Below are positions 10,457-54,639 of a DNA stretch of 64,000 bases, in pieces. The stretch covers positions 25,327 through 89,326 of the forward strand of contig JAZDOD010000008.1 in NCBI GenBank assembly GCA_043798995.1, read 5' to 3'. Position numbers and translations under genes: made by a program. The notes beneath the pieces were generated by a model. It did no database searches. It was not told the origin of the DNA and saw only the letters and a program-made list of their open reading frames with translations. The DNA comes from a bacterium. GTDB lineage: Bacteria; Patescibacteriota; Patescibacteriia; JAACEG01; JAGUWE01. Every line of letters starts with the position of its first letter. The stretch's first letter is position 1.

Positions 10457-10473
10457 TAAATATTGAATTTAAT

Positions 10474-29371: not shown

Positions 29372-29400
29372 TTTTTCCCGAGAGTTTAAACAAAAAAATT

Positions 29401-29877
29401 ATGGTCGAAAAAAAATCAAAGGGTTTTACCCTGATTGAGCTTTTGATCGTCATTGCGATCATCATCATTCTGGCAGCCATTGTTTTTGTGGCCTTGAATC
29501 CGTTGCAGCGCTTTCAGCAGGCGCGTAATGCCAAAAGATGGGCCGACATCACGGCTGTGCTTAATGCCATCAAAATTGATCAAATAGATAATGGCGGTAG
29601 TTATATGGCCGCTATTGATCCTGGCATGGCTAACGGCACTTATCACGAAATTGGCACTTGCGCCAGTGGCGCGAGTTGTACCGGTCAAGCAGTAGAAGCG
29701 GGTTGCGTTGATTTAGCCGGATTAGTGACTGATGGCTATCTGGGCATTCTCCCAACTGATCCTCAAAGCGGCACAGCGGCTCAAACCGGTTATTATTTAA
29801 TGAAATCAGCTACCGGCATCATTACTGTTGGCGCTTGCGAAGCAGAGGCAGGGGAAACCATCAAGGCCTCACGCTAA
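29401..29877 (+). CDS. pilA: Type IV pilin (candidate major pilin)
   Basis: KGFTLIELLIVIAIIIILAAIVFVALNP is a canonical prepilin motif. The C-terminal Cys pair (GTCASGASCTG…GCVD) forms a disulfide loop. 158 aa. Confidence 0.7.
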   Translation: MVEKKSKGFTLIELLIVIAIIIILAAIVFVALNPLQRFQQARNAKRWADITAVLNAIKIDQIDNGGSYMAAIDPGMANGTYHEIGTCASGASCTGQAVEAGCVDLAGLVTDGYLGILPTDPQSGTAAQTGYYLMKSATGIITVGACEAEAGETIKASR

Positions 29878-29915
29878 AAACAAAACCAAAGTTTTAATTA
29901 GAAAATCTTAATTAG

Positions 29916-29960
29916 TTTGATAAAACTGTCAATTTTCAAATTGGCAGTTTTATCTACTTT
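29916..29960 (+). terminator. Inverted repeat after the pilin gene; terminator or operator
   Basis: gataaaactgtcaat tttcaa attggcagttttatc, a 15-bp stem with one mismatch, then tacttttgtt. Confidence 0.35.
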
Positions 29961-29964
29961 TGTT

Positions 29965-31758
29965 ATGCTTGAAATCACCGACGAAATAAAATCACGGCTT
30001 GATATTGCTGAAGTTATCCGGGAGTATATCAAATTAAATCCGGCCGGGACCAATTTTAAGGCCCTCTGCCCTTTTCATAATGAAACAACCCCATCGTTTA
30101 TGGTTTCGTCGGAAAAACAGATCTGGCATTGCTTTGGCTGCGGCGAGGGCGGGGATATTTTCGGTTTTGTTATGAAGATGGAAAATATTGAATTTATTGA
30201 CGCCCTGCGGCTTTTGGCCAAAAAAGCCGGCGTTAGATTAACCCGCCAGGATCCGAAATTAGCCAGTTTGCGCGGCCGTTTGACCGAAATAATGAACGAA
30301 GCAATTGAATTTTATCAATATAATCTCTGGCAGGCGCCCTTGGGTCAGTTTGCCCGCGATTATTTAAACCAAAGAAAAATTTCAAAAGATTCGGCCCAAG
30401 AGTTCAAATTGGGTTTTGCACCTGCCAGTTGGGATAGTTTAATTAATTTTCTTAAAAAGAGAGGGTTTCAAGATCAGGACATTTTAGCCGCCGGTTTGAT
30501 AATTAAAAAAGATTCAGGCGCTGGTTTTTACGATCGTTTTAGAAATCGTTTAATTTTTCCGATTTTTGATGTTCATAATCAGCCAGTTGGCCTGGGCGGC
30601 CGAACTTTGGCTTTTGGCGGCGATGAGGAAAAGACCGCCAAATACATTAATACGCCCCAGACTTTAATTTACAATAAAAGCCAGGCAATTTACGGCCTTG
30701 ACAAAGCCAAGCTGGAAATCAGAAAAAAAGAATTGATTATTATAGTGGAGGGCTATCTGGATGTTATTTCATCTCATCAGGTCGATATAAAAAATGTGGT
30801 GGCGACTTCCGGCACGGCTCTGACAGCCGAGCATTTAAAAATTTTAAAGCGATATTCGCAAAATTTGGCTTTGGCTTTTGACGCTGATTTGGGCGGCGAT
30901 TCGGCTCGCAGCCGCGGCCTGGATTTGGCTTTGGCGCATGGGCTTAATGTCAAACTAATTTTAATTCCCCAAGGCAAAGATCCGGATGAATGCATTAAGC
31001 TTGATCCGAAACTCTGGCAGCAATCTGTGGCCCAGCCGCTAAATTTTCTTGATTATTATTTTGAAAAAACTTTTGCCAATCTGGATTTAAGCAAAGCCGA
31101 AAATAAAAAGAAAGCCGCCAAAATACTTCTGCCGCTTATTAATAAGATAGCTGATAAAATTGAACAAAACCATTACCTTAAAAAATTGGCTGAAATTCTT
31201 GGCGTGCCGGAGCAGATTTTGCACGAAAGTTTGAGCGCGCCGGCGGCAGAAAGGGGCAGACCTACTTTTCAGCCAGTCAGGGGCGAACGCCATCACCTTT
31301 TAAGTGAACGGATTTTGTCCCTGGCCCTAAAATACGGCCTAAACCTCGATTATTTAATAAATAATTTAACGCCAACAATGTTAGCCGATGATACGGCCAG
31401 AAAAATTTACAACAATCTTATAATTTATTATACTAATAGCAATGTTAAGGATTTTAGCTTTAATTTTGATTATCCGGAATTTAGAAATTTGCTGGCCGAG
31501 GAAGATTCTTCTTTGACCGCTTACGCCGACCAGTTGGTGCTACTGGCCGAGAAGGATTTTTTTGATTTTAGTCAGGATTTAATTCGCAAAGAAATTTTAG
31601 AAGACGTTAAATCTTTAAAGAAAGATTATTTTAAATCAGAACTCAAAAAAATAGAGGAAAAAATAAAACAGGCGGAGAAAATAAAAAATAATAATGAAAT
31701 CGAAAAACTATTTGAGCAATTTAACCAATTAACCAAACAATTAGCTTTGGTTAGTTAA
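29965..31758 (+). CDS. dnaG: DNA primase
   Basis: Zinc-binding domain [14 protein letters not shown]…[17 protein letters not shown] and Toprim EGYLDVIS. The start is taken at the internal ATG ([14 protein letters not shown]). Confidence 0.9.
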
Positions 31759-31766
31759 ATTTTTTT

Positions 31767-33113
31767 ATGGCCAAAAAGTCAAGAACAAAAACCAAAAAGA
31801 AAAACGTAAAATCACGGAAGAAGCCGGTAAAAAAAATCAAAGCTAAAGTCAAAAAGAAAGCTTCGGCAAAATCTGAGTTTAAAAAAGCAAAAAAAAGCGG
31901 GAAACGCAGCGTCAAGAAAATTAAAAAGAAACCCTTTAGGAAAATTAAAAAAGCGGCCAAAAAAATTACCAAGAAAAAGGTTGCCAAAGAAGTTAAAAAA
32001 ATTCTGACTGATGCTGAAATCAGAAATTTAATAAACAAGGGCCGAAGCCGCGGTTTTTTGACATTAACAGAGATTTTATATGTTTTTTCCGAACTGGAAG
32101 AGTATTTGGAACTTTATGAGGATTTTTTGGATCAGCTTGATAAAAGCGGCGTGCAGATATTGGAAACTGAGCCGGGAATTTTGCAGAAAAAAGAAAAAAT
32201 TGACGAGATTTTGTCCGTCGTCACTTTTTCCAAGGAAAAAGAAAAGAAAAAATTTGATTTAGGCGATATTTCAACTGATTCAATCCAAATGTATCTTCGG
32301 GAAATCGGCAAGGTGCCGCTTTTGACTTCCGAGGAGGAAGTCTCTTTAGCTAAGCGCAAGGAAAAAAATGACAAAGAAGCCGAGCGGCGTTTGATTGAAG
32401 CCAATTTGAGATTGGTGGTTTCCATTGCCAAAAGATTTGTGGGCAAAAAACTTTCGCTTTTGGATTTGATTCAGGAGGGCAATATCGGGCTTTTCCGGGC
32501 GGTGCAAAAATTTGAATACCGCAAGGGTTATAAATTTTCAACTTACGCTACCTGGTGGATTCGCCAGGCCATTACCCGGGCTTTGGCCGATCAGTCGCGC
32601 ACTATCCGCATTCCGGTGCATATGGTGGAAATGATTAATAAATTCCAGCAGGTTGAACGCCAATTAATTCAGGACTTGGGCCGCGAACCAATGCCGGAAG
32701 AAATTGCGGCTGAAATGAGTGAAGACATTGATAAAGTCCGCCAGATTATTAAAATTTCCCAGGACACGGTTTCTTTGGAAACCTCGGTGGGCGATGATGA
32801 GGAAGACAGCACTTTGGAAAATTTCATTGAAGACATCAAAAGCATTAGTCCCGACCGGGCCACGGCCTTGCAACTTCTTAGAAACTATGTCCAGGATATT
32901 ATTCAGGGTCTGACACCCCGTGAAAGAAAAATTCTGGAAATGCGTTTTGGTTTAATTGATGGCATTTCCCACACTCTGGAAGAAGTGGGCAAAGAATTCA
33001 ATGTCACTCGCGAACGCATCCGCCAAATAGAAGCCAAGGCCTTGGAAAAAATAGAGGGCCTTAAAGGTATTGAAAAACTGAAGGATTATCGGGGAAAAGA
33101 GGGTAATAACTAA
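31767..33113 (+). CDS. rpoD: RNA polymerase sigma-70 factor with an approximately 80-aa lysine-rich N-terminal extension
   Basis: Region 2 [30 protein letters not shown] and region 4 [15 protein letters not shown]…[20 protein letters not shown]. The N-terminus is [29 protein letters not shown]…. Confidence 0.9.
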
Positions 33114-34130
<1,017 letters not shown>

Positions 34131-34150
34131 AATAAATTTTTAAAAATAAA

Positions 34151-34178
34151 AAAAGGTCACAAAATTTGTGGCCTTTTA
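34151..34178. terminator. Intrinsic terminator after gap
   Basis: ggtcacaaa at ttgtggcc followed by ttttaaaattttt. Confidence 0.5.
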
Positions 34179-34378
34179 AAATTTTTAAAATTTGGCTTAA
34201 TTTAGTAAATGTTATATAATATCAAAAAGAGGGCCCGATTGTCCAGACAAACAAGCTGAAAATTACGGCAACGCTAAGAATCAGCCAGATAATTTTTTGC
34301 CATTTTCGTTTATTTTTCTTAAGCATAGAAGATAGATTTTTTTACATTATAATTTAAAATTTCTAAAAAAGCAAATTT

Positions 34379-34894
34379 ATGGAGAATTTCACCTTCCCAT
34401 TTTTCAGAATATTTTCAATTTTAGTTTTTAGTTTCCTTTTCTATTATTTAATTAAAACTATTAGCCAAACTTTTTTCCAAAAAGTGGTTAAGAATTTAGC
34501 GGTTAAATTGGCAGCCAAAGAAGATGAAAAAAAACGCCTTAAAACAATTCTTCATGTGGTCAACCGCGCCACCATAATTTTGATCGTGATCATTGCTGCC
34601 TTAATGATTATTGCTGAATTAGGAATTAATATCGCTCCACTTTTGGCCGGCGCGGGGATTTTGGGTATTACTATCAGTTTTGGGGCGCAGACCTTAATTA
34701 AAGATATGATTAATGGTTTATTTATAGTTTTGGAGGGACAATTTTCGCGGGGAGATTTGATTAAAATTGGCGATATTGAAGGCCAAGTTGCTGATTTTAA
34801 TTTAAGGCGCACTTTGCTTAGAGATAATCAAAATATTTTATATTATGTTCCTAATAGTGAAATAAAAATTATTGCCAATAAAAGCCGAAAGTAA
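34379..34894 (+). CDS. Small-conductance mechanosensitive channel (MscS family, short form)
   Basis: TM helices, then GAQTLIKDMINGLFIVLEGQFSRGDLIKIGDIEGQV, which resembles the MscS pore and beta domain. Confidence 0.7.
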   Translation: MENFTFPFFRIFSILVFSFLFYYLIKTISQTFFQKVVKNLAVKLAAKEDEKKRLKTILHVVNRATIILIVIIAALMIIAELGINIAPLLAGAGILGITISFGAQTLIKDMINGLFIVLEGQFSRGDLIKIGDIEGQVADFNLRRTLLRDNQNILYYVPNSEIKIIANKSRK

Positions 34895-34896
34895 TT

Positions 34897-36639
34897 ATGC
34901 CCAAAAAGTGGCGGGTTTTACCAAAAATTAGTCAAGAGCAAGAAAAATTATTCCCCGAGTTGAGTTCTATTATTTTACAACTTTTGGCCAATCGGGGGTT
35001 AACTTACCAAGCTGCGATTGAGAGCTTTTTTAATTTTGATTATAAAAAAGGACTTCATGATCCATATTTGTTTTCCGATATGAAAAAAGCGGTGGAAAAG
35101 ATTTTCAGCGCTATTTCGGAAAAGAAAAAAATTGTTGTTTATGGTGATTATGATGCCGATGGCGTCTGCGCCGTAGTCGTTTTAGTTAAAACCCTAAAGG
35201 AACTTGGCGTTGAGGTTGAAATTTACATTCCTCATCGCGACAAAGAAGGCTATGGGCTTAATAAGGCGGCGTTGAAACATTTGGCCAAAGAAAAAACAAA
35301 ACTTATTATTACTGTTGATTGCGGCATCAGCAATTTTGAAGAAGTTCTTTACGCCAATAAATTGGGCCTGGAAATAATTATTACCGATCACCATCATGTG
35401 CCGGAAAAATTGCCGCCGGCTTTTGCCATTATTAATCCTAAAATATTGGGAGGGAAATATCCCTTTTCCGATTTAGCCGGCGTGGGCGTAGCTTTTAAAT
35501 TAGCCCAAGCCCTGATCGGCCAGCATAAAAAGATAATCACCGACGACGGTTTACGACTTAATTGGGAGGGATTTGAAAAGTGGCTTTTGGATTTAGTGGC
35601 TATTGGCACGGTGGCTGATTGCGCTCCGCTTTTGGGCGAAAATCGCACTTTGGTTAAATACGGTCTGACGGTGCTTAACAAGACGAGATTAATCGGCCTT
35701 AAAGAATTAATCAAAGCCGCGCGATTAGGCAGAAATAACAAAATTTTTGGAGCCGAGCAGATCAGTTTTCAGATTGCGCCGCGTCTTAACGCCGCCGGCC
35801 GGATTAATCATGCCAATGACGCCTTTCAGCTGCTCATTACTTCTTCGGCTGACCGGGCTAAAAGATTGGCTGCGGGTTTAGAAAAAAATAACAGCCAAAG
35901 GCAGCGCTTGACTGAAAAAGTTATGACCGAAGCCAGAGAACAGCTGACAGAAAAAAATAAGAATAAGTTAATATTCATTTCTGGGGAGAATTGGCCGGCC
36001 AGCATTATTGGCTTGGTGGCCGGGAAATTTTCCGACGAATTTAATTTACCGGCCGTTATTGTTTCCGAAGTTGAGGGCAAAATAGTCGGCTCGGGTCGCA
36101 GCATTCCGGTTTTTAATATTATTGAGGCCTTGGAAGATTTAGCTCCTTGTTTTTCCCATTTTGGCGGACATGCCCAGGCCTGCGGCTTTGCTTTAAAAAA
36201 TAAAAAAGATAGCCGAGAATTTCAGAGCAAAATAATTAAATTAGCCAATTCATCTTTGGCCGGGCTTGATTTGACGCCGACTCTGGAAATTGACGCTGAA
36301 ATTAATTTAAGCGAGATTACTTGGCCGTTTTATCAGGGAATCAGCCGTTTTGCTCCATTTGGTTTGGGCAATCCGCCGCCAATTTTTTTAACCCGCAATC
36401 TTTCGGTTTTAAGCCATCGGCAGGTTGGTCAGAATGGCAAACATCTGAAATTATTTATTAGTAATCCCGAGGAAACTGAGATTAACCAGATGGATGGCAT
36501 TGGTTTTAATTTGGCCGGCCAGTGGCTGGATAAAATTAAAACAGGCGATAAAATTGATTTGGTTTATCAGCTTGAAGCCAACCAATGGAACGGCGATCAG
36601 CAGCTTCAGCTTAAAGTAATTGATTTAAAAATAGCATGA
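34897..36639 (+). CDS. recJ: Single-stranded-DNA-specific exonuclease RecJ
   Basis: DHH motifs VYGDYDADGVCA and IITDHHH, a DHHA1 GGHAQACGF-like region, 580 aa. Confidence 0.9.
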   Translation: MPKKWRVLPKISQEQEKLFPELSSIILQLLANRGLTYQAAIESFFNFDYKKGLHDPYLFSDMKKAVEKIFSAISEKKKIVVYGDYDADGVCAVVVLVKTLKELGVEVEIYIPHRDKEGYGLNKAALKHLAKEKTKLIITVDCGISNFEEVLYANKLGLEIIITDHHHVPEKLPPAFAIINPKILGGKYPFSDLAGVGVAFKLAQALIGQHKKIITDDGLRLNWEGFEKWLLDLVAIGTVADCAPLLGENRTLVKYGLTVLNKTRLIGLKELIKAARLGRNNKIFGAEQISFQIAPRLNAAGRINHANDAFQLLITSSADRAKRLAAGLEKNNSQRQRLTEKVMTEAREQLTEKNKNKLIFISGENWPASIIGLVAGKFSDEFNLPAVIVSEVEGKIVGSGRSIPVFNIIEALEDLAPCFSHFGGHAQACGFALKNKKDSREFQSKIIKLANSSLAGLDLTPTLEIDAEINLSEITWPFYQGISRFAPFGLGNPPPIFLTRNLSVLSHRQVGQNGKHLKLFISNPEETEINQMDGIGFNLAGQWLDKIKTGDKIDLVYQLEANQWNGDQQLQLKVIDLKIA

Positions 36640-36729
36640 AGTGTTAATTAAAAATTACGAATTAAGGTTAAACTTTTTTATTTGTAATCCCATAATTCAT
36701 AATTCTTGATCCCTAATTCTTAATAATCT

Positions 36730-37164
36730 ATGCAACAAATTGTCATTTACACCGATGGTGGCGCTCGCGGCAATCCCGGCCCGGCCGCTATTGGCGCGGT
36801 AATTCAATACGACCATCAGGAAAAGTATTACAGTCATTTTCTTGGCAAGACCACTAATAATGAAGCCGAATATCAGGGGTTAATCCTTGCTTTAAAAAAA
36901 GCAAAATCTCTTCTTGGCAAAGAAAAAGTCAAAAGAGCTAGTTTAGAATGCTTTTTGGACAGCGAACTGGTAGTCAAACAATTGAATCACGAGTACAAAA
37001 TTGAAGAGGAAAAATTGCAAAAACTTTTTATCCAGATTTGGAATTTGATGCTGGATTTTGGCGCAGTTAAATTTACTCATATAAAAAGAGAGCAGAATAA
37101 AATTGCCGACCGGCTCGTTAACGAGGAATTGGACCGCCAGGAAAGGCAGAGGCAACTAATTTGA
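36730..37164 (+). CDS. rnhA: Ribonuclease HI
   Basis: IYTDGGARGNPGPAAIGAV…NNEAEYQGLILAL gives the RNase H catalytic D and E residues. Confidence 0.8.
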   Translation: MQQIVIYTDGGARGNPGPAAIGAVIQYDHQEKYYSHFLGKTTNNEAEYQGLILALKKAKSLLGKEKVKRASLECFLDSELVVKQLNHEYKIEEEKLQKLFIQIWNLMLDFGAVKFTHIKREQNKIADRLVNEELDRQERQRQLI

Positions 37165-37214
37165 TAAATTTTTATAGGAAAAGCCGTGCCTCTTTATTTA
37201 TTTTATTCATTTTT

Positions 37215-37247
37215 AAGCATCGGATTTTCCGATGCTTATTTTTTTTG
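37215..37247 (+). terminator. Rho-independent terminator of rnhA
   Basis: aagcatcgga tttt ccgatgctt followed by attttttttg. The palindrome gctacggggttgaccccgtagc lies immediately downstream. Confidence 0.5.
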
Positions 37248-37372
37248 CTACGGGGTTGACCCCGTAGCAAATCCCAGCGGAGAATTTTTAAAATTTTGAG
37301 CCAATTTAAGGCGAAGCCGCCTGACGGCTTTATTCTAATTCTTAGCGAATTTTTTTTAGAATTGCTACGGGG

Positions 37373-37401
37373 TTGACAAAATCGGTTATTTATGCTACAA
37401 T
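37373..37401 (+). promoter_or_regulatory. Near-consensus sigma70 promoter: TTGACA, 17 nt, TACAAT
   Basis: TTGACA at 37373-37378, a 17-nt spacer and TACAAT at 37396-37401. Confidence 0.55.
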
Positions 37402-37407
37402 AAAATG

Positions 37408-37626
37408 TTTGAAATAAAGCCCTCTTTAGTCCCAGTCAGAGGTGCCTTAAAAACCTTAAGCATCTTAAATAGAGGCGAACAATTTGTTCTTTACAAAATA
37501 TAAGTCTCTATAAGTTTGGCTGGGAATAAAGAGGGCTGTTCGTTCTTTTATAAACTTTGACCCAATAGGGTCAAAAAACATTCAAACTGCTAAGACAATT
37601 GTCTTAGCAAAAAGGAGGTTTTTGAA
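37408..37626 (+). promoter_or_regulatory. Structured 5' leader or independent small RNA of about 140 nt (37408-37550), unassigned to any known class
   Basis: A 19-bp closing helix pairs aagccctctttagtcccag (37417-37435) with ctgggaataaagagggct (37520-37537) and is followed by guucguucuuuua. Internal hairpins are cttaa…ttaag and atagag[gaacaa ttt gttc]…ctctat. Further hairpins ttgaccc aata gggtcaa and gctaagacaattgtcttagc lie just before the RBS. Confidence 0.4.
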
Positions 37627-38184
37627 ATGAATGAGATGATGGGTGAAAAAGAAGTGGTTGAGAAAGACCACAGTCAAGAATTTTTCTGTATGTTTTGTCC
37701 CGAGAAGCCAGGGGTGGCTTGGAGATCACTGGCCTTGACTCGCGGACCAAAGGGTGAGTATATTATAACCCCGATTTGCAATGATTGCCTTGGAGGAGCG
37801 ATCGAGGTTGCTAAAAGGGAGAGGCGATTTCTCCCGCATTACCCCGTTCAGGAGTCGGTTCAAAGGGTAGCCGAACTTAACACTCGGTTAGGCGAGCCAA
37901 TGGTTTGCGAAATTTGTTTTCAGGAGCGCTTCATAGAGTTTTCCACGGGCGTTGTGCAGGATGGCAATGGTCATTACCGCGCCCAGAGAACTTGCTGTTT
38001 TTGTAAGGCAACCCTTGAAGAGAAGAATGAAAGGATTCACTGGTTCAAAAAGACACAGGAGATCGCGGAGGAAAAAAATCGTCGCATAGCCCAAGCAACT
38101 CAGGTAGTGGCCAACTATAGCCAGCCATTCAACAGGCCGCGCGTTAGCCGCGATAACGGCAAAAAAGACCAGTACAGGAAGTAA
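37627..38184 (+). CDS. Cys-rich putative zinc-ribbon protein (function unknown), GC-rich relative to neighbours
   Basis: Strong RBS aaaaggaggtttttgaa ATG. Cys pairs CMFCPE, CNDC, CEIC and CCFC. By eye the gene is about 50% GC against about 35% for the flanks, with different codon usage (AGG, CTC, GCC frequent). Confidence 0.55.
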   Translation: MNEMMGEKEVVEKDHSQEFFCMFCPEKPGVAWRSLALTRGPKGEYIITPICNDCLGGAIEVAKRERRFLPHYPVQESVQRVAELNTRLGEPMVCEICFQERFIEFSTGVVQDGNGHYRAQRTCCFCKATLEEKNERIHWFKKTQEIAEEKNRRIAQATQVVANYSQPFNRPRVSRDNGKKDQYRK

Positions 38185-38189
38185 CATTT

Positions 38190-38228
38190 CGGCGAGGTCG
38201 CCTTTTTGGTGACCTCGCCTCTTTTTAT
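38190..38228 (+). terminator. Rho-independent terminator
   Basis: ggcgaggtcgcc ttttt ggtgacctcgcc followed by tcttttta. Confidence 0.5.
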
Positions 38229-38231
38229 ATC

Positions 38232-38260
38232 TTGACAAAATTTAAAATAAGTAATATAAT
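38232..38260 (+). promoter_or_regulatory. Consensus sigma70 promoter of rnpB: TTGACA, 17 nt, TATAAT
   Basis: TTGACA at 38232-38237, a 17-nt spacer and TATAAT at 38255-38260. Confidence 0.6.
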
Positions 38261-38266
38261 ATTTTC

Positions 38267-38687
38267 ACTCAGGTAAGTGGATGATCGCTCTCGTTTTTAA
38301 AAAGCGAGAGAGGAAAGTCCGAACACTCTCCGCTTTAGCGGAGAAGTAGGCAGTGGATAACGCCCACCGGAAGCAAGTTTAAGTTAAGAATGACTCTTAA
38401 GAGTTTTTGACTTAATCCCAAGTCCAGGGAAAGTACCACAGAAACTAAACCGCCCGCCTAAATTTTTTAAAATTTAGGCGGGTAAGGGTGAAAAGTGAAG
38501 GAGTAAAACCCTTCTCTCAGCGTGGTGACGCGCTTGAGTGGCAAACCCTGCCTGGTGCAAGAGCAAGTTTTCCCGCCGATGAGGCGGGGAAGGTAGCTCG
38601 CTTGAGTCCGACGGCAACGTCGGACCTAGATAGATGATCATCCCGCCGATGAGGCGGAACAGAATTCGGCTTATAGCTTGCCTGAGT
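38267..38687 (+). ncRNA. rnpB: RNase P RNA, bacterial type A
   Basis: P1 pairs actcaggtaag with cttgcctgagt. P4 5' strand GAGGAAAGUCCG. Also …UAACGCC…, ACAGAAAC…AACCGCC, GGUAAGGGUGAAAAGUG…GUAAAACCC, CUAGAUAGAUGAUCAUCC, and P4 3' strand ACAGAAUUCGGCUUAUAG. All match the type A consensus. Confidence 0.8.
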
Positions 38688-38736
38688 AACAATAAAACAT
38701 TGGTTAAAAACCAATGTTTTATTGTTTTTGACTTAA
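38688..38736 (+). terminator. Rho-independent terminator of rnpB
   Basis: aacaataaaacattggtt aaaa accaatgttttattgtt followed by tttga. Confidence 0.6.
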
Positions 38737-38762
38737 GGCAATAAATTTATTATAATTATATT

Positions 38763-40181
38763 ATGAAGAAATTTGATCTAATTTTTGCCGCCATTTTGGT
38801 GCCGGTAGATTTTTTAATGATTGTTTTAGCCGCTGTTTCGGCTTATTTTTTGCGTTTTACTCCACTCGTGACTGAAATCAGGCCGGTAATTTTTAATCTG
38901 CCTTTTCAGGAGTATTTAGCCATTATTATTTTTATAGCTATTTTATGGCTGCTTCTCTTTGCTTTTTCCGGTTTGTATAAAATCAAAGACAACAAAAATC
39001 CGGCCCAGGAATTTTATAAAATTTTTCTTGCCTGTTCAGCCGGCATAATGCTGGTGATGGTTTTAATTTTTGCCCGCCGCGAGTTATTTTCCTCGCGTTT
39101 TATCATTTTAGCCGCCTGGATTTTCAGCGTTATTTATGTTTCCATCGGCCGTTTAGCTATCAGCCGGCTTCAGACAGCTTTTCGCCGACACGGCTATGGC
39201 ATAAGAAAGGTTCTTTTAATCGGCGCAGACCGGATTGCCGAGATTATCTCTCAGGAAATAAAAGAAAAACCGGAAATGGGTTATCGCCTAATCGGCGCAA
39301 TTAAAAATTATTCGCAGGACATTATTTATCAAGTCAAAAATTTTTTAGCCGAACATCCGGATCTTTATCAGATTATTCAGAGTAAAAATGGCCTTCCGCA
39401 GGAGGTGAGTCTGAAACTGGTTGAGTTTTGCGACGAAAATCATTTGGTTTTTAAATACACGCCGGATCTTTTTGAAACCCAATCAATCAATATTGAAGTT
39501 GGAACTTTGGCCGGTATTCCAATTATGGAACTCAAACGGACCCGACTTGAAGGTTGGGGCAAAATTATTAAACGGATTTTTGATGTTATTGGTTCAACAA
39601 TTTTGGTTATTTTGGCTTCGCCGGTGATGCTGCTTATTGCCATCGCCATCAAACTTGATTCACCCGGCCCTGTTTTTTTTAGCCGTTATGACAATGATGA
39701 AAAATTAAAGCGAGTCGGCGAACATGGAGAACTTTTTCATTATTTTAAATTTCGTTCTATGAAGCCGGGCACTCATCAGATGCGCTATCAGGAACTCTCT
39801 GATTTGAATTTAAGAAACGACGGGCCATTGGTTAAAATTGAAAATGATCCGCGGGTGACGCGCGTTGGCCGGATTTTGCGTCGTTACAGTTTGGACGAAT
39901 TGCCGGAATTATTTTTGGTTTTTACAGGCAAGATGAGTTTGGTGGGCCCGCGTCCGCATTTTCCCGAAGAAGTGGAAAAATATCAGCGCCGTCACAAGAA
40001 AACTTTAATGATTAAACCCGGCATCACCGGACTGGCGCAAATCAGCGGCCGCAGCGATCTGTCGTTTGAAGATGAGGCGCGGCTTGACGCTTATTATATT
40101 GAAAATTGGTCATTAATGCTTGATTTGCAAATTTTATTTAAAACGCCGTTGGCTGTTATTAAGCATTGCAAAAATTGTTAA
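38763..40181 (+). CDS. Polyprenyl-phosphate glycosyl-1-phosphate transferase (bacterial sugar transferase, WbaP/EpsL-like)
   Basis: Four or five N-terminal TM helices. The C-terminal catalytic domain LDELPELFLVFTGKMSLVGPRP…KPGITGLAQISGRSDLSFE is a bacterial sugar transferase signature. Confidence 0.85.
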   Translation: MKKFDLIFAAILVPVDFLMIVLAAVSAYFLRFTPLVTEIRPVIFNLPFQEYLAIIIFIAILWLLLFAFSGLYKIKDNKNPAQEFYKIFLACSAGIMLVMVLIFARRELFSSRFIILAAWIFSVIYVSIGRLAISRLQTAFRRHGYGIRKVLLIGADRIAEIISQEIKEKPEMGYRLIGAIKNYSQDIIYQVKNFLAEHPDLYQIIQSKNGLPQEVSLKLVEFCDENHLVFKYTPDLFETQSINIEVGTLAGIPIMELKRTRLEGWGKIIKRIFDVIGSTILVILASPVMLLIAIAIKLDSPGPVFFSRYDNDEKLKRVGEHGELFHYFKFRSMKPGTHQMRYQELSDLNLRNDGPLVKIENDPRVTRVGRILRRYSLDELPELFLVFTGKMSLVGPRPHFPEEVEKYQRRHKKTLMIKPGITGLAQISGRSDLSFEDEARLDAYYIENWSLMLDLQILFKTPLAVIKHCKNC

Positions 40182-40184
40182 ATT

Positions 40185-41228
40185 ATGGCTAGCTTCTTTG
40201 TTGTTAAAATTTTAATTTTATCAACCATTTCCTTTATGGCGACAATTTTATGGACGCCGCTTTTAACGTATTTTCTTTATAAATATAAACTGGGCAAAAA
40301 TATCCGTTCAGCTGAAAACGCGCCAATTTATGCCCAACTTCATCAAAAAAAAGCCGGCACACCAACTATGGGCGGAGTTTTAATTTGGGCGACAACCTTA
40401 ATTTTAATTTTATTTTTTTATTTGATTTCGGTTTTTTTTCCAGATTCAAATTTGGCTAAACTGAATTTTTTCAGCCGTTCGCAAACACTTTTACCCTTAG
40501 GCGTTTTAGTCGCCACCGCTATAGTGGGGTTAGTTGATGATTTGTTAAATATTTTTAAAATCGGACCTAACGGCGGAGGAATGAAAATCCGCCATCAACT
40601 TGTCATTTATACTTTAATCGCCTTGGTTGGCGCCTGGTGGTTTTATTTTAAACTTGATTGGGATATTATCCGGATTCCGTTTGTCGGTAATTTTAATATA
40701 GGGTCGTGGATTATCCCAGTTTTTATTTTTATTATTGTTGGCACGGCTCACAGCGTTAATTTAACCGATGGACTTGACGGTCTGGCCGGCGGCACACTTT
40801 TGGCCGGCTTTGCCGCCTATGGGGCGATTACTTTTTCTCAAGGTAAATATGATTTAGCTTCTTTTTGCGCCGTCATTGTGGGAGCGCTTTTGGCTTTTTT
40901 GTGGTTTAACATCAATCCAGCCCGTTTTTTTATGGGCGATACCGGAGCAATGAGTTTAGGAATTACTTTGGGAGTTTTGGCCATGCTAACCAATACGGTT
41001 TTAATTTTGCCTATTATCGGCTTGATTTTTGTGGTGGAAACTTTGTCAGTCATTGTTCAGCTTATTTCAAAAAAAATTCGCGGCAAAAAAATTTTTCTTT
41101 CTACGCCGCTTCATCATCACCTGGAAGCCAAGGGTTGGCCGGAGGGAAAAATTGTTATGCGCTTTTGGGTAATTTCCGGCGTGACGGCTGTGGCAGGTTT
41201 GATTATCTTTTTGATGGATAAAAGTTAA
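40185..41228 (+). CDS. mraY: Phospho-N-acetylmuramoyl-pentapeptide transferase
   Basis: VNLTDGLDGLAGG, DDLLNIFK and MGDTGAMSLG are MraY signatures. Confidence 0.9.
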   Translation: MASFFVVKILILSTISFMATILWTPLLTYFLYKYKLGKNIRSAENAPIYAQLHQKKAGTPTMGGVLIWATTLILILFFYLISVFFPDSNLAKLNFFSRSQTLLPLGVLVATAIVGLVDDLLNIFKIGPNGGGMKIRHQLVIYTLIALVGAWWFYFKLDWDIIRIPFVGNFNIGSWIIPVFIFIIVGTAHSVNLTDGLDGLAGGTLLAGFAAYGAITFSQGKYDLASFCAVIVGALLAFLWFNINPARFFMGDTGAMSLGITLGVLAMLTNTVLILPIIGLIFVVETLSVIVQLISKKIRGKKIFLSTPLHHHLEAKGWPEGKIVMRFWVISGVTAVAGLIIFLMDKS

Positions 41229-41234
41229 TTTTTT

Positions 41235-42716
41235 ATGGATTTTAAAGGTAAAAAAATAATCGTCATGGGTCTTGGTATTCTTGGTGGCGGAGTGGCAGTG
41301 GTAAAATGGCTGGCTAAAAAAGGAGCCGAGCTAACCGTGACTGATTTGAAAAATAAAAAAGAACTAAAAAATTCAATCACCAAATTAAAAGATTTAAAAA
41401 TTAAATATGTTTTAGGCCGGCATCGCGAAGACGATTTTAAAAAAGCTGATTTGATTATTCAAAATCCGGCCGTGCCGGCCGATTCAGAATATTTAAAAAT
41501 AGCGCGGGAGTCAGCCGTGCCGATTGAAAATGAAGCCAGTTTATTTTTTAAAATCGTGCCTCAGGACTTAATTATCGGCATTACCGGCACCCGCGGCAAA
41601 TCAACCACCACCACTTTAATTTATCAGATTTTTAAAAAAAAATACCAGTCGGCTTTATGTGGTGGCAATATCAAAGTCAATCCACTCTTTGAAATTATTG
41701 AGCAAGTGAAAAAAGATCCGGTTGTTTTGGAACTCTCTTCGTTTCAGTTAGAGAATTTAGCCGATAGCAAAATCAGTCCGCATTTATCAATTATTACTAA
41801 TATTTTACCCGATCATTTGAATCGTTATAAAAATTTGAAAAATTATATTAACGCCAAAGCTAATATTTTTAATTTTCAAAGCAAAGAAGATTTTGTTGTT
41901 TTAAATTTAGATAACCCTTTAACTAAAAAATTAGGCCAAGACGTTCCCTCGCGGCGTTATTGGTTTTCTGAAAAATATTTTTCCCAGCAAAATGGCGTTT
42001 TCTTGTCTTCGGGCCGGCTAATTTTTAGGCAAAACGGCCAAGAAATCAAAGTTTTAAATGTCAAAGAAATAAAACTGCCCGGCAGTCACAATCTGGAAAA
42101 TATTTTAGCCGCGGTTGCGGCCGCGATGATTTATCAAATACCGGTAAAGCTGATAAGAAAAGCTGTTTCAGAATTTAAAGGTGTGCCCGGCCGACTGGAA
42201 TTAATAAAAGTCATCAAAGGCATTAAATTTTATAATGATACAACCGCCACTATCCCGGAGGCGACAATTGCCGCCCTCGTTACACTCGGGCAGCTCAAAG
42301 ATGAAAATCTCCGCCGAAGGCGGATCTCCGCCAAAGGCGGATGGGCCTCTGGCGCACTCCTCGGGCGGAAAAAATCAAAAGTTAGGAATAAAAATATTGT
42401 TTTGATAGCCGGAGGAGCTGATAAAAAGTTAGATTTTCATTTTTTAGCGCCACAGATTAAAAAATATTGTAAAACCGTGATTTTATTGCCGGGCACGGCG
42501 ACGCCGAAGATTTATAAAGAATTACGAATTACGAATTACGAATTACGAATTATTAATGTTAAAAATATGATCGAAGCCGTTGCCGTTGCTTTTAAATTAG
42601 CGGTAAGCAGTGATATTATTCTTCTCTCACCGGCCGCGGCCAGTTTCGGCTTGTTTAAAAATGAATTTGACAGGGGAGAGCAATATTTAAAGGCAGTTAA
42701 GAAATTAAAATCCTAA
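41235..42716 (+). CDS. murD: UDP-N-acetylmuramoylalanine--D-glutamate ligase carrying in-frame repeat insertions
   Basis: KIIVMGLGILGGGVAVVKWL is the Rossmann fold and GITGTRGKSTTTTLI the P-loop. The C-terminus is LLSPAAASFGLFKNEFDRGEQY. Insertions: two tandem CCGCC-N4-GGCGG hairpins (42313-42352) and a 7-nt (gaattac) x5 repeat (42519-42553). Confidence 0.85.
   Translation: MDFKGKKIIVMGLGILGGGVAVVKWLAKKGAELTVTDLKNKKELKNSITKLKDLKIKYVLGRHREDDFKKADLIIQNPAVPADSEYLKIARESAVPIENEASLFFKIVPQDLIIGITGTRGKSTTTTLIYQIFKKKYQSALCGGNIKVNPLFEIIEQVKKDPVVLELSSFQLENLADSKISPHLSIITNILPDHLNRYKNLKNYINAKANIFNFQSKEDFVVLNLDNPLTKKLGQDVPSRRYWFSEKYFSQQNGVFLSSGRLIFRQNGQEIKVLNVKEIKLPGSHNLENILAAVAAAMIYQIPVKLIRKAVSEFKGVPGRLELIKVIKGIKFYNDTTATIPEATIAALVTLGQLKDENLRRRRISAKGGWASGALLGRKKSKVRNKNIVLIAGGADKKLDFHFLAPQIKKYCKTVILLPGTATPKIYKELRITNYELRIINVKNMIEAVAVAFKLAVSSDIILLSPAAASFGLFKNEFDRGEQYLKAVKKLKS
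42519..42553 (+). repeat. Heptanucleotide tandem repeat (gaattac) x5 inside murD
   Basis: gaattacgaattacgaattacgaattacgaattat encodes ELRITNYELRII in frame. Confidence 0.6.
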
Positions 42717-42729
42717 ATCCTAAGCACTA

Positions 42730-42885
42730 AATCCCAAACAATATCTAAATTCCAAATTATAAATAACAAACGGTTTGGAATTTAATAATTAGAATTTGTC
42801 TCCCTTTGGGAGATCCCCCGTAGGGGGAAAATTTATTTAGGATTTGTTTAGAATTTAGGATTTCGTGTTTAGAATTTAATTTTTT
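42730..42885. repeat. Low-complexity intergenic region with two adjacent GC hairpins (family-3)
   Basis: aaatcc(t/c)aa and ttagaattt / ttaggattt repeats. tctccctttgggaga and tcccccgtaggggga lie at 42799-42828. Confidence 0.4.
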
Positions 42886-43986
42886 ATGAAGCCCCATCAG
42901 CCGGATTATTTATTTTTAACTCTTGTTTTTGTGATTATTGTTTTTGGCTTGGTAATGTTATCCTCAGCTAGTACCGTGGTTTCTTTTCAAAAGCATCAGA
43001 ACAGCTTTTATTATTTTAAACATCAGTTGCTTTATGGCTTTTTGCCCGGCGTGATTTTATTTTTTATTTGTCTTCGGCTTAACTATCAGATTTGGCGAAA
43101 GTGGGCGAACGGTTTTTTGATTTTGTCATTGGTTTTATTGGTTTTAGTTTTTATACCCAGCATTAGTTTGACCGTTAATAACGCCAAAAGTTGGATTAAT
43201 TTAGATCTTTTTTCTTTTCAGCCCTCCGAAATTGTCAAATTAGCTTATATTTTGTATTTAGCCCAATGGATTGAAAGACAAGGCAAAGAGAGGATTAAGG
43301 ACTTTAATTTTGGTTTCCTGCCTTTTTTAGTGGTTTTGGGGTTAATTATGGTTTTAATTGCTTTAGAGCCAGACATGGGGACAATGTCGGTTATTGTTTT
43401 AATAGCTTTAATAATTTATTTTTTGGCCGGAGCACGGCTTCGTCATTTAGCATCGTTTATTTTAGTGATGAGCGGTTTATTTTTTATTTTAATTAAACTT
43501 GCGCCGTATCGTTTAGCCCGGCTGACAACTTTTTTAAATCCTGCCTTAGATCCGCAAGGCACTGGTTATCATATAAACCAAGCTTTTTTGGCTATTGGTT
43601 CTGGCGGTTGGCTTGGTCGGGGGTTTGGGCTTTCACGGCAGAAATTCCAGTATTTACCCGAATCAATGGGCGATTCAATTTTTGCCATTATTGCCGAAGA
43701 ATTAGGTTTTGTAATTTGTTTACTTTTTCTTTTACTTGTCTTGGCTTTGATTTTACGCGGCTATAAAATTGCCAAAAACGCTCCTGACAGATTTTCCCAA
43801 ATAACTGTTATCGGGGTTATTTCCTGGTTTGTGGTTCAGTCATTTGTTAATATCGGCGCTATGGTTGGCCTTCTGCCCTTGACCGGCGTGCCATTGGTTT
43901 TTGTTAGCTATGGCGGCACATCATTGGCAGTTTCTTTAGCCGCCGTTGGCATTGTGGCTAATATTTCACGTTGGACGGTGAGGTGA
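42886..43986 (+). CDS. ftsW: SEDS-family peptidoglycan glycosyltransferase (FtsW/RodA)
   Basis: Ten TM helices, with …GSGGWLGRGFGLSRQKFQYLPESMGDSIFAIIAEELGF…, the conserved SEDS block. It follows murD. Confidence 0.8.
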   Translation: MKPHQPDYLFLTLVFVIIVFGLVMLSSASTVVSFQKHQNSFYYFKHQLLYGFLPGVILFFICLRLNYQIWRKWANGFLILSLVLLVLVFIPSISLTVNNAKSWINLDLFSFQPSEIVKLAYILYLAQWIERQGKERIKDFNFGFLPFLVVLGLIMVLIALEPDMGTMSVIVLIALIIYFLAGARLRHLASFILVMSGLFFILIKLAPYRLARLTTFLNPALDPQGTGYHINQAFLAIGSGGWLGRGFGLSRQKFQYLPESMGDSIFAIIAEELGFVICLLFLLLVLALILRGYKIAKNAPDRFSQITVIGVISWFVVQSFVNIGAMVGLLPLTGVPLVFVSYGGTSLAVSLAAVGIVANISRWTVR

Positions 43987-44058
43987 TCGCCAATATTTGT
44001 TATTCAATTTAAAATTGGTTATAATAATAAATAAAGATTTGAGATATTTAGTTAAATT

Positions 44059-44979
44059 ATGTTAAAGAAAATTACCTTTCTTATTTTAATCATTTTTCTA
44101 TTTTTCATTAGTGTTAATTTTGTTTTAGCGGATAACTTTCTTCCCGGTCCTCAACCCATCCAACCGCCTGATATTAAGATTAAAATTCCCGGGATGGATA
44201 ATCTTGGTGAAATCAAACCAGCGATGTGCACTTATGACGAAACAAAAACTTGCTACCAAATTCCTTGGATTGCTAATTATATCGGCGGAGTTTATAAATT
44301 CGGCGTTAGCGCCTTGGCTCTTTTGTCGGTGATTGTCATTGCCTGGGGCGGCATTGTCTGGCTGACGGCCGGCGGTTCAGCTACACAAGTTAGCAAAGCC
44401 AAGGATTGGATTTTAGGCGGCATCACCGGTCTAATCTTGGGCCTTTCCAGTTATGTGCTTTTAGTGACAATCAATCCAGATTTTGTTAATCTAAAACCGC
44501 TTGAGGTGGCCTGGCTAGCGGGTGAGAAATTGCCTGAGATAGAACCATGGGCAGCGGGTCCGACAACGGGAACTTATTCTGATGCCAGAGCGCGTGAAGT
44601 TATTAGAATGGCTTCGGCGGGGTCAATTACAGTTAATGCGTATGAGCCTCAAACTAGTTTAAATGGTGTGCGAGTGGAAACAATCAACGGTTTGTTAAAA
44701 ATTTGGCAAGGTTGTGGTCAATGTCAGATTCAAATTAGTGGTGGTACTGAAGGCGGCTATCACAATGTTGGTGAGTTTAGCCATGGAACGGGTTATAAAT
44801 TAGATTTATCATATGTAAGTTCTTCAACGGAATTACATAATTATATTCTAAGACAGATCGGAATAACTAATATAAGCAACGTAGTTTATGACAAAACTTA
44901 TATTGGGGCGGATGGTAATAAGTATAGACTGGAACCAAGTACTGCTCTGCATTGGGATATTTGTTTTGGTTGTCCATAG
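44059..44979 (+). CDS. Membrane-anchored protein with a possible C-terminal M15-like (VanY / D,D-carboxypeptidase-type) zinc peptidase domain
   Basis: Signal peptide plus two hydrophobic helices. The C-terminus ISGGTEGGYHNVGEFSHGTGYKLDL … STALHWDICFGCP loosely fits the M15 SxHxxGxAxD … H pattern. It occupies the usual murG position. Confidence 0.4.
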   Translation: MLKKITFLILIIFLFFISVNFVLADNFLPGPQPIQPPDIKIKIPGMDNLGEIKPAMCTYDETKTCYQIPWIANYIGGVYKFGVSALALLSVIVIAWGGIVWLTAGGSATQVSKAKDWILGGITGLILGLSSYVLLVTINPDFVNLKPLEVAWLAGEKLPEIEPWAAGPTTGTYSDARAREVIRMASAGSITVNAYEPQTSLNGVRVETINGLLKIWQGCGQCQIQISGGTEGGYHNVGEFSHGTGYKLDLSYVSSSTELHNYILRQIGITNISNVVYDKTYIGADGNKYRLEPSTALHWDICFGCP

Positions 44980-45039
44980 AACATAGATAATAAATTAATA
45001 TATAGCTATTTGACAATTAATTAAAGGAGGGAAACTAAA

Positions 45040-46833
45040 ATGGAAAAGAAAAAAGTAGTTTTGATTGAACCAGCTTCACCCGGAGCCCATATTTTTTCGC
45101 GAGTGCCTATTCCACGCTTGGGTATTATTATTTTGGGCACAATAGCTAAGCAAGCAGGTTATGAAGTCAAAATTTATATTGAGGATATGTTTGGCAAGAT
45201 CAATGATTTAAAATCTGTAATTGAAGGTGCTCTCGCGGTAGGCATTTCGACAATTACTTCAACAGCACCAAGAGCTTATCAATTGGCAGATCAAACAAGG
45301 GCTTTAGGAATTACGGTAATTCTGGGCGGCGTTCATCCGACTTTTATGATTGAGGAAGCGCTAAACCACGCTGATTTTGTTGTCCGAGGAGAGGGAGAAA
45401 AGGCGATTTTGCCTTTACTTGAAGCCATAAGCGGCCAAATTAATTTTTCTCAAGTTCCTAATTTAAGTTATTGGCAAGGCGGCCAGATTATGAGTAATGA
45501 AATGGCACCTCACATTGTTGATTTAGATGAGATACCTAGTCCGGATTACTCGGTTATTGAGGGTTGGCAAACGGATAAAAAAGTTCCGGTTGTTTCCATT
45601 ACAACCTCAAGAGGATGTCCTTTTAATTGTGTTTTTTGTTCGGTTGTGCCGATGTTTGGCAGACGTTATCGTTTTACTTCTGTGGAGCGAGCCGTGGCCG
45701 ATCTTGAGGCAGCCGCGAAAATTGCTAAACACATTTTTATTGCCGATGATAATTTTACAGCCAACATCGAAAGAGTTAAAGCTATCCTAAAGGAAGCTAT
45801 TAGAAGAGGATTGAAGTTTGAATGGTCGGCTCAAGTTCGCACGGAAACGGCTAAAGACAAGGAACTGCTGCGACTGATGAAACAAACAGGCTGCTTCATG
45901 AATTTTATTGGTTTTGAATCAATTAATCCCAAAACACTAGTTGCTTATGAAAAAAAACAAACTTTGGCCGAGATTGAACAATCAATTAAAGCTTTCCAAC
46001 GTTTTGGCATCAAAATTCACGGCATGTTTGTTTTAGGAGCTGATGAAGATGAGGTAGCCACGATTAAAGAAACCGTCCGTTTTGCTAAAAGACTTGATAT
46101 TGACACAGTCCAGTTTATGATCCTTACCCCTTTACCCGGCACCAGAGTTTGGCAAGAGTTTGTTGACCAGGCAAGAATTATTGATATTAACTATAGTCAT
46201 TATGATGCCCATCATACTGTTTACAAGCCCAAACGCATGACTAGCTACGAATTGCAGATAGAAACCTTCAGAGCAATGAAAAAATTTTATAGTTGGCGGG
46301 GAATTTTCCAAAGATTGCTCAAGGCGATTATCACCTGGTCGGCGCCAGATTTCTGGATAGTCAATCTGCGTTTTTACGGCCGCAAACAAATTAGACAGGC
46401 CTTTGAAAGCAAACGTCTCTATCTAAAATATTTGCATGAAAAGATATCGCAACATACAGAAAAATTCAAGGCAAATTTGTCTAAGAAAAGAATCAAAACT
46501 GTGGGTTTGCCCGCGGAACTTATGGGCAATTGGGAACCTTCTTATCGGCGGTTTTTGCGAGCTTTTTTAGCTAAGTTAGGAGTTAAAATCATTGATTTGA
46601 AAGCTGATCAAATAATTGACGAACAACCTGACATTGTTTTGTTAGCTCATTGGGCAGTCAAAAATAAGGGTGAGATTTTTCACTCAATCAAGGATAAAAA
46701 ACAAATTAGCTTGGATTTTAATCCTCAAAATTTTAGCGAGCAATGTCTTGGTTTAGGCCTGCTTTTTAAAAGCAAAGTCAGGCGAGTCCGTCGGATTTTT
46801 CAAAAAACCCTGCAAGACAATGTTCTTGCCTAA
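45040..46833 (+). CDS. B12-binding domain radical SAM protein (class B)
   Basis: N-terminal cobalamin-binding Rossmann region (VVLIEPASP…ILGGVHPTFM…DFVVRGEGE). Radical SAM motif SRGCPFNCVFCSV (CxxxCxxC). Strong RBS aaaggaggg. Confidence 0.8.
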   Translation: MEKKKVVLIEPASPGAHIFSRVPIPRLGIIILGTIAKQAGYEVKIYIEDMFGKINDLKSVIEGALAVGISTITSTAPRAYQLADQTRALGITVILGGVHPTFMIEEALNHADFVVRGEGEKAILPLLEAISGQINFSQVPNLSYWQGGQIMSNEMAPHIVDLDEIPSPDYSVIEGWQTDKKVPVVSITTSRGCPFNCVFCSVVPMFGRRYRFTSVERAVADLEAAAKIAKHIFIADDNFTANIERVKAILKEAIRRGLKFEWSAQVRTETAKDKELLRLMKQTGCFMNFIGFESINPKTLVAYEKKQTLAEIEQSIKAFQRFGIKIHGMFVLGADEDEVATIKETVRFAKRLDIDTVQFMILTPLPGTRVWQEFVDQARIIDINYSHYDAHHTVYKPKRMTSYELQIETFRAMKKFYSWRGIFQRLLKAIITWSAPDFWIVNLRFYGRKQIRQAFESKRLYLKYLHEKISQHTEKFKANLSKKRIKTVGLPAELMGNWEPSYRRFLRAFLAKLGVKIIDLKADQIIDEQPDIVLLAHWAVKNKGEIFHSIKDKKQISLDFNPQNFSEQCLGLGLLFKSKVRRVRRIFQKTLQDNVLA

Positions 46834-46861
46834 ATAGTTAACTAGTAGCCAATCCAGTTAG

Positions 46862-47050: not shown

Positions 47051-47096
47051 GATTGTTAATTTTTGTAAATTGCTTTAAAATAGATAAGCAATCTTT

Positions 47097-54628: not shown

Positions 54629-54639
54629 TCTTTTAGAAA

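Follow-up and report, generated by a model that had tools for sequence, protein, structure and literature searches.

We describe a cysteine-rich (Cys-rich) gene of an uncultured Patescibacterium (candidate phyla radiation, CPR) that is preceded by a long and very stably folded RNA leader. The gene is located in a 64,000-nt stretch of contig JAZDOD010000008.1 (hereafter the window, to which coordinates refer unless another sequence is named), where it forms a stand-alone unit between rnhA (36730-37164) and rnpB (38269-38689). A leader of about 220 nt lies ahead of a GGAGG ribosome-binding site (RBS) and an open reading frame (ORF) of 185 aa. The segment 37401-37540 of the + strand was found to be the most stable of the entire 64 kb after adjustment for G+C content, ahead of segments overlapping rnpB and the L10 leader. 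We give an even chance to the reading that the leader is a functional cis-acting 5' untranslated region (UTR), which would control the stability and/or the translation of the mRNA of an accessory zinc-finger protein, possibly via feedback from the protein product.

The limits of the unit were defined by promoter and terminator scans and by the identity of its neighbors. The ORF of rnhA matches Pfam RNase_H/RVT_3 and ends in an intrinsic terminator of its own, and rnpB matches Rfam RF00010 (218.8 bits) and has its own promoter (12/12). A first-pass annotation of this region had proposed a near-consensus sigma-70 promoter driving an independent transcription unit, and both proposals were confirmed. 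Sites scoring at least 11/12 were limited to three in 28001-48000, those of the Cys-rich gene, rnpB and a sugar-transferase gene, each directly upstream of a transcription unit. Both hexamers of the Cys-rich promoter are invariant in four strain-level copies of the locus while the 17-nt spacer between them varies at several positions, a pattern expected of a working promoter. Transcription is predicted to start at about 37407-37409, and the extended -10 promoter would thereby yield an mRNA whose 5' UTR is about 220 nt long. The terminator at the distal end of the unit ranks first in the 20 kb scanned. The Cys-rich gene is best explained as a monocistronic accessory gene. A promoter-like site (TTGACT-18-TATATT, 10/12) was also detected on the + strand within the coding sequence (CDS), at 37735-37764, and probably arose by chance.

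Folding of 37405-37630 gave -83.5 kcal/mol (z = -8.9 versus dinucleotide shuffles), and the long structured leader of the first-pass annotation is thus genuine. The dominant element is a three-way junction (Table 1) which by itself folds to -54.6 kcal/mol (z = -7.3), with a minimum free energy (MFE) structure identical to the centroid. The internal hairpins seen earlier within the closing helix correspond to the two arms P2 and P3. The closing helix P1 is likewise present, although its limits were revised from 19 bp at 37417-37435/37520-37537 to 20 pairs plus a G.A mismatch at 37418-37438/37517-37537. The ranking of the junction region at the top of the window was obtained by scanning the 64 kb on both strands in 140-nt steps with G+C content regressed out. 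Folding of truncated transcripts predicted that P2 and P3 form first and that P1 closes later, its 5' strand remaining single-stranded until the partner strand is made.

Table 1. Features of the Cys-rich unit, with a further inverted repeat of the window (SD, Shine-Dalgarno; pI, isoelectric point).
Feature	Position	Strand	Description and basis
Intrinsic terminator of rnhA, upstream boundary of the unit	37214-37246	+	11-bp stem 37214-37238, then T8; terminator scan
Strain-variable spacer	37245-37377	+	117-nt segment between perfect 16-nt direct repeats TTGCTACGGGGTTGAC (37245-37260, 37362-37377)
Promoter, sigma-70-type	37373-37401	+	TTGACA-17-TACAAT with TGn extended -10; 11/12
Three-way-junction RNA domain	37418-37537	+	P1, P2 and P3; folding, inverted-repeat reading, strain comparison
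P1 closing helix	37418-37438 / 37517-37537	+	20 bp plus one G.A mismatch
P2 arm	37439-37466	+	Predicted fold
P3 arm	37469-37511	+	Predicted fold
U-rich tract	37539-37558	+	Directly 3' of P1; predicted anti-SD strand versus 37615-37635; alternatively a non-canonical terminator tail
Hairpin H4	37556-37575	+	UUUGACCC-AAUA-GGGUCAAA; predicted fold
Hairpin H5	37588-37609	+	9 bp, loop AAUU; last base 5 nt upstream of GGAGG
SD sequence GGAGG	37614-37618	+	Within AAAGGAGGU; 8 nt before the ATG at 37627
CDS	37627-38184	+	185 aa, 21.6 kDa, pI 8.6; two putative C4 modules and a basic, predicted helical C-terminal tail
Intrinsic terminator of the unit	38191-38229	+	12-bp stem 38191-38219, 9 G-C pairs, then TCTTTTTAT; terminator scan
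21-bp inverted repeat	2085-2175		GCCAAGATTAGCAAATTTTC...GAAAATTTGCCAATCTTGGC; encloses a CCCCGCC-TTTG-GCGGGG hairpin; divergent intergenic region upstream of the DUF5701 promoter

An inverted repeat of this length might alternatively be a DNA palindrome or the remnant of a mobile element (of the miniature inverted-repeat transposable element or repetitive extragenic palindrome type) that lies between promoter and gene and has no function as RNA. The reverse complement of the junction reaches only -41.4 kcal/mol and is 13 kcal/mol weaker than the + strand, because four G.U pairs of the + strand become A.C on the - strand. This asymmetry favors an RNA with the sequence of the + strand over a DNA palindrome. 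A remnant would be in keeping with the adjoining upstream spacer, a hot spot of strain-specific palindromic insertions, and with the presence of another 21-bp inverted repeat enclosing a hairpin at 2085-2175. By contrast, conservation of the junction is 98-99%, while the true insertions next to it are either missing or 44-73% identical. Direct reading of the sequence showed no target-site duplication around the junction, which is a single-copy element: no further copy was detected in the 64 kb with up to 3 mismatches or with a covariance model. The junction covariance model R1 also gave nothing in 26 RecJ loci of related Patescibacteria or in a Portnoybacteria locus, and a two-anchor DNA pattern of the junction gave nothing in metagenome or viral contigs. 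A covariance-model match in one locus (L011, E 1.2) was rejected, as it reflects an unrelated inverted repeat that surrounds a DUF559-type insertion. We consider the palindrome remnant the least likely of the readings weighed here.

The spacer upstream of the promoter was analyzed separately. Its second 16-nt repeat provides the -35 box of the promoter, and its 117-nt segment contains a perfect palindrome (GCTACGGGGT-TG-ACCCCGTAGC), a further half-site of which abuts the -35 box. The 8-mer TACGGGGT occurs three times in the 64 kb, every time at the Cys-rich locus. Of the strain copies introduced below, L002 is missing the 117-nt segment, and in L030 its place is taken by another insertion that includes a related palindrome (L030 about 4160-4620). 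From these patterns, the palindrome region may act as an operator or may be a hot spot at which small palindromes insert.

Conservation of the leader was examined in four strain copies (the window, L001, L002 and L030), among which it is at least 93% identical throughout. Between the window and L030, 3 of 219 leader nucleotides (1.4%) are changed, as opposed to 40 of 458 (8.7%) four-fold degenerate sites of four flanking genes (binomial P = 3.6e-6). Other intergenic stretches of this pair are 91-94% identical, and the spacer just 5' of the leader is rearranged and 44-71% identical. Identity of the window to L001 is 73% in the spacer, 98.2% in the leader, 90% in the CDS and 97.9% in rnpB. The junction is 98.5% identical to both L001 and L030, and the 85 nt 3' of it are as conserved as the junction itself. 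A leader peptide was considered and rejected, as the 32-codon ORF that starts at 37405 within the junction is frameshifted by a 1-nt indel in L001 and L030; the constraint thus acts on the RNA. Taken together, the strain comparisons argue for purifying selection acting on the leader as RNA. In L002, H5 carries one compensatory change (G-C to A-U), H4 is shorter yet kept, a CU to UC swap in the U-rich tract leaves the SD G residues with both of their pairs, and P1 has lost one terminal pair. The L002 changes cluster mostly in the 3' part of the leader, where about 7% of positions differ compared to 27% in the adjoining divergent CDS block.

The U-rich tract that follows P1 (UGUUCGUUCUUUUAU) had been likened at first pass to an intrinsic terminator or a riboswitch OFF switch. 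The tract exists and reaches 5 U in 8 nt; the proposed switch is unsupported, since the preceding structure is a branched stem of 120 nt rather than a simple hairpin, the tract is interrupted and its predicted partner is the SD/AUG region. A canonical intrinsic terminator would comprise a simple hairpin, G+C-rich and with 3-8 nt in its loop, and a tail of at least 5 U in 8 nt that starts 0-2 nt past the stem. The sequence after U37537 is GUUCGUUCUUUUA, in which the windows at offsets 1 and 2 each hold 5 U in 8 and thus have the U content of a terminator tail, with a C and a G interrupting the tract. At 37418-37550, by contrast, P1 closes a branched interior of 78 nt, and no canonical terminator was detected by the terminator scan from the promoter to the CDS.

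These data bear on whether the junction may be a separate small RNA (sRNA) of about 130-145 nt that ends at P1 and the U-rich tract near 37550, with the gene expressed by read-through only (a dual-output or attenuator arrangement). Such an sRNA would be consistent with the G+C-rich base of P1 (GCCC/GGGC), with a 5-U-in-8 window within 1-2 nt of P1, and with the late pairing of the P1 5' strand, by which the helix could zip up at termination. The junction is also as conserved as the neighboring rnpB, and the promoters of the two belong to one strength class. However, the branched stem fails the terminator scan, and the interruption of the tract (UGUUCGUUCUUUU) differs from the clean T runs of three canonical terminators nearby. 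Moreover, the next 85 nt are equally conserved and are devoid of a credible second promoter: in 37540-37626 the sole -35-like sequence, TTGACC, faces a -10 candidate, ATTCAA, that scores 2/6. An Rfam sRNA match is likewise absent. We therefore view the separate sRNA as a minority possibility and infer that transcription proceeds from the leader into the CDS.

When the start of the CDS was included in the folding, both the MFE structure and the ensemble paired 37539-37558 with 37615-37635, a region that includes the SD and the AUG, by 19 pairs. In this predicted fold the anti-SD strand (CUUU/UUUUA) meets GGAGG and AUG via A-U and G.U pairs, and the ensemble probability that the SD/AUG stretch is open is about 2e-4. 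The strong RBS and two further hairpins, one of them near the RBS, that had been recognized at first pass are present as H4 and H5; the outer pairs of H4 compete with the anti-SD helix. An alternative 7-bp helix (37407-13/37581-87) frees the SD at about 4.7 kcal/mol above the ensemble free energy. Occlusion of the SD by the U-rich strand appears plausible but not remarkable.

An aptamer-like junction placed directly before a strand able to sequester the SD and AUG raises the question of a ligand-sensing riboswitch, with the junction as putative aptamer and the anti-SD strand as its expression platform. The strong constraint on the sequence and the alternative helix that leaves the SD free are compatible with this. 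The 20-bp P1 is, however, so stable that ligand-dependent switching of P1 is implausible, and the gene to be regulated has no metabolic or transport role that hints at a ligand. Known riboswitch families are unmatched even at E <= 10, and the leader was found in one narrow lineage only; known riboswitch classes are usually widespread. We thus judge a riboswitch very unlikely.

Searches with the RNA and with a neighboring protein place the locus in a poorly sampled lineage. The scan of the leader against Rfam suggested by the first-pass annotation was carried out, and the leader was found to lie outside every Rfam family. With Rfam 15 at gathering thresholds over the whole window, the only matches were rnpB, one tRNA and the L10 leader, all elsewhere than the Cys-rich leader. 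At E <= 10 over 37150-38300, the best match to the leader was a plant miRNA model at 21.5 bits (gathering threshold 100), which is attributed to chance. The closest RecJ in 185,579 GTDB representative genomes is only 48% identical (Paceibacterota/Patescibacteria), indicating a lineage without a close sequenced representative. In the two Paceibacterota genomes with this closest RecJ, rnpB is near recJ on the opposite strand and upstream (L004 3397-3800(-); L029 3441-3839(-)); proximity of recJ and rnpB is loosely conserved, and the Cys-rich gene is absent there.

The ORF at 37627-38184 is, from its pattern of substitution among strains, a real protein-coding gene. Its ratio of nonsynonymous to synonymous divergence (dN/dS) is 0.17-0.22, third codon positions hold most of the changes, and its indels of 3, 3 and 15 nt are all in-frame, all of which is as expected for an ORF that encodes a protein. 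No excess of structure for its G+C content was detected across the CDS (fold z about 0), and the possibility that this G+C-rich region is a large structured RNA was ruled out by the coding-type substitutions and this z value. An antisense ORF (37888-38238, 116 aa) was dismissed as a by-product of high G+C content, as the selection signal sits in the + frame.

The composition of the CDS sets it apart among the 53 ORFs of at least 100 aa in the window, the set used for all comparisons of composition, SD and opening energy. Its G+C content (0.486 versus a gene mean of 0.379, standard deviation 0.039) and its G+C content at third positions (0.532 versus 0.362 +/- 0.060) are the highest of the set. 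The G+C anomaly of the first-pass annotation is real, although its figures of about 50% and 35% are closer to 49% and 38%. The different codon usage reported with it was also borne out, with a codon-fit value of -0.062 (mean 0.153, standard deviation 0.052) that is the sole negative one of the set. No other SD in the window is as strong as the GGAGG of the Cys-rich gene. An SD core (GGAG/GAGG/AGGA within -22 to -5) was found for 5 of the 53 ORFs and an anti-SD duplex of -6 kcal/mol or below for 4, and the genome is largely SD-independent. The SD-bearing genes start at 37627 (Cys-rich), 45040 (B12-binding radical SAM), 2306 (DUF5701) and 61077 (unknown), with the core only at 3022; all look accessory. 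Horizontal acquisition, as also suggested at first pass, fits the G+C content, codon usage and rare strong SD. By contrast, the G+C content of the leader is host-like (0.35), and no donor was identified: phage and plasmid searches revealed no phage, plasmid or other donor relatives of the gene.

The CDS also evolves differently from its neighbors. Its synonymous divergence (dS) is 0.35-0.49 (0.35 to L001) compared to 0.03 for recJ and 0.11 for rnhA of the same strain pair, or about 3-10 times that of the neighbors. Nucleotides 1-120 of the CDS are divergent in L002 only (32 of 120), and nucleotides 331-440 in L030 and L001 only (26 of 110); for recJ, L030 is the outlier strain. Site patterns that differ by block and by strain indicate repeated recombination into the gene, and the CDS is, judged from these alignments, a recombination mosaic that has repeatedly taken in divergent segments. 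A diversity-generating retroelement was excluded as the source of the divergent blocks: no reverse transcriptase is nearby, no A-specific pattern was found, and the RVT_3 match is the RNase H fold of rnhA. A mobile cassette was likewise rejected. The downstream context of L001 seemed different and is in fact the same recJ-rnhA-X-rnpB synteny with one extra gene of 130 aa between the Cys-rich gene and rnpB. This extra gene (L001 1028-1420; L030 5317-5709) has no Pfam match on record and is missing from the window and L002.

The first-pass annotation had listed a product of 185 aa with four CxxC pairs and no recognizable family, and this was borne out by searches of Pfam, NCBIfam, PHROGs, PADLOC and PDB. 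The CxxC pairs start at residues 21, 51, 94 and 123 and form two C4 modules (21 with 51; 94 with 123), with the knuckles of each module 26-27 residues apart. The two modules have no detectable similarity to each other. All strain variants retain the eight ligand Cys residues, and P0004, a distant relative described below, retains the four that belong to module 1. The C-terminal segment is basic (pI 10.4), and its first part is helical in a low-confidence full-length model. In the AlphaFold2 model of module 1, a knuckle is followed by a beta-hairpin and a second knuckle at the N-terminus of a helix. From its sequence and these models, the protein probably has two zinc-binding C4 modules and probably binds nucleic acid. 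Searches of Pfam, NCBIfam and PDB sequences with the protein gave nothing, and PHROGs gave chance-level matches only. The sole PADLOC match was a marginal PglX at chance level (E 0.004, 13 bits), and a per-member Pfam scan of four homologues gave only two sub-threshold matches. Structure modeling had also been recommended at first pass; the model was compared to PDB by Foldseek, and nothing was found at E <= 0.001.

Homologues of the protein are few. A word-indexed search of 5.8 billion clusters revealed two strain variants (89% and 83% identity), and when 1.84 billion representatives were searched in full with HMMER, one genuine distant relative was gained, P0004 (HY764_00210 of Candidatus Portnoybacteria, GCA_016208745.1), a protein of 102 aa that is 36% identical over residues 21-88. 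A cluster look-up identified the protein of the window itself as NCBI MFH0819715.1 (V1892_01645, metagenome-assembled genome 'bacterium') and yielded the fourth strain locus, L030. A further match, P0003 (1301 aa, E 3e-22), was discarded as a eukaryote-like Ig-repeat protein whose score was inflated by ten repeats. No additional relatives were found with a profile that included P0004, nor was anything found with the protein profile in genome, metagenome or viral contigs. The family thus comprises essentially five sequences (the entry of the window, three strain variants and P0004), and the protein is, by these sequence comparisons, rare and fast-evolving.

In the cis-acting reading, the first 130 nt of the leader would fold co-transcriptionally into the very stable three-way junction, the U-rich strand after the junction would pair with the SD and AUG and enclose the two small hairpins, and the leader would set the stability of the mRNA and/or the translation of the two-module protein. 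The most economical version would be autoregulation, in which the protein would bind either the leader of its own mRNA or, at the promoter, the TACGGGGT palindrome. Several results weigh against this reading. Opening of the SD/AUG stretch costs 5.3 kcal/mol, which is mid-range among the 53 ORFs; SD occlusion is unexceptional by this measure and was ruled out as an outlier property. Between the window and L002 the leader is about 5% different where the flanking four-fold sites differ by 2.4%; since the leader is not more conserved than these sites in this pair, its conservation in the other pairs could derive in part from recent recombination rather than selection. L002 has also lost two distal pairs of the anti-SD helix. 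No covariation was detected in the four copies, which are at least 93% identical and show almost no variation in the 76 predicted pairs. AlphaFold2 confidence (predicted local distance difference test, pLDDT) is low, at 40 for the full-length protein and 57 for module 1, with no significant structural match. Finally, the leader of P0004 is short and unrelated and has no junction.

A bolder and, in our estimate, unlikely proposal is that the junction represents a new structured-RNA class of one Patescibacteria lineage that works with the orphan two-module zinc-finger protein encoded after it. In such a dedicated pair, the RNA might serve as operator for a repressor protein, or the two might form a small ribonucleoprotein, with the RNA component freed from the 5' UTR. 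Recombination would have diversified the protein component, as expected for a function in conflict or host interaction. Both RNA and protein are outside every curated family tested, and both are of familiar kinds, the RNA as a structured leader of an mRNA and the protein as a small ORFan with C4 zinc fingers.

The interest of the locus is that one well-delimited unit joins three oddities: a leader of top-ranking stability, a near-orphan protein family, and a gene atypical in G+C content, codons, SD and recombination. Patescibacteria carry many tiny lineage-specific genes of unknown role. To our knowledge, their regulatory RNAs are sparsely catalogued. If leader and protein interact, the unit would provide a compact model of post-transcriptional control in an SD-poor CPR genome; if not, it would be a tidy example of a strain-variable accessory gene. 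The narrow distribution limits the general impact and blocks comparative proof.

Other structured elements were also noted in the window. The 21-bp inverted repeat of Table 1 is part of a 211-nt segment (2030-2240(-)) with a fold z of -7.2. Four consecutive strong hairpins are found between convergent genes at 10301-10473 (z = -8.4). Their stems include two that are G+C-rich and one of 14 bp that is A/U-rich, and the group probably represents stacked bidirectional terminators. The L10 leader is at 54631-54774 (Rfam 47.3 bits, just over the gathering threshold of 44), and 54741-54900, after this leader, is also among the most stable windows of the fold scan. The tRNA is at 61868-61950.

Compared to known systems, the Cys-rich leader is similar to the autoregulatory ribosomal-protein leaders, such as the L10 leader (RF00557), in that a long, structured and constrained 5' UTR precedes the gene of a small basic protein and pairing reaches the SD/AUG region. 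It differs in that it matches no Rfam leader and its product is no recognizable ribosomal protein, and binding of the protein to the leader is putative. The U-rich strand on GGAGG and AUG, downstream of a structured domain, likewise resembles SD-sequestering riboswitches and RNA thermometers of the fourU type; by contrast to these, there is no family match, SD opening is unremarkable and the stability of the junction far exceeds that of typical switching aptamers. With C4 zinc-ribbon and treble-clef fingers the protein shares paired CxxC knuckles (twice), a basic tail and, in the module 1 model, a knuckle at the N-terminus of a helix, although its modules are mutually dissimilar and match no known finger in sequence or PDB structure. 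P0004 has a single module, a short unstructured leader and different neighbors (a two-component system and an M48 peptidase). It is nonetheless the closest parallel outside the strain variants, as it has in common with the Cys-rich protein module 1, an IxVAKRxxRF helix and a QPF motif in the tail, and its gene, like the Cys-rich gene, has its own TTGACA promoter-like site.

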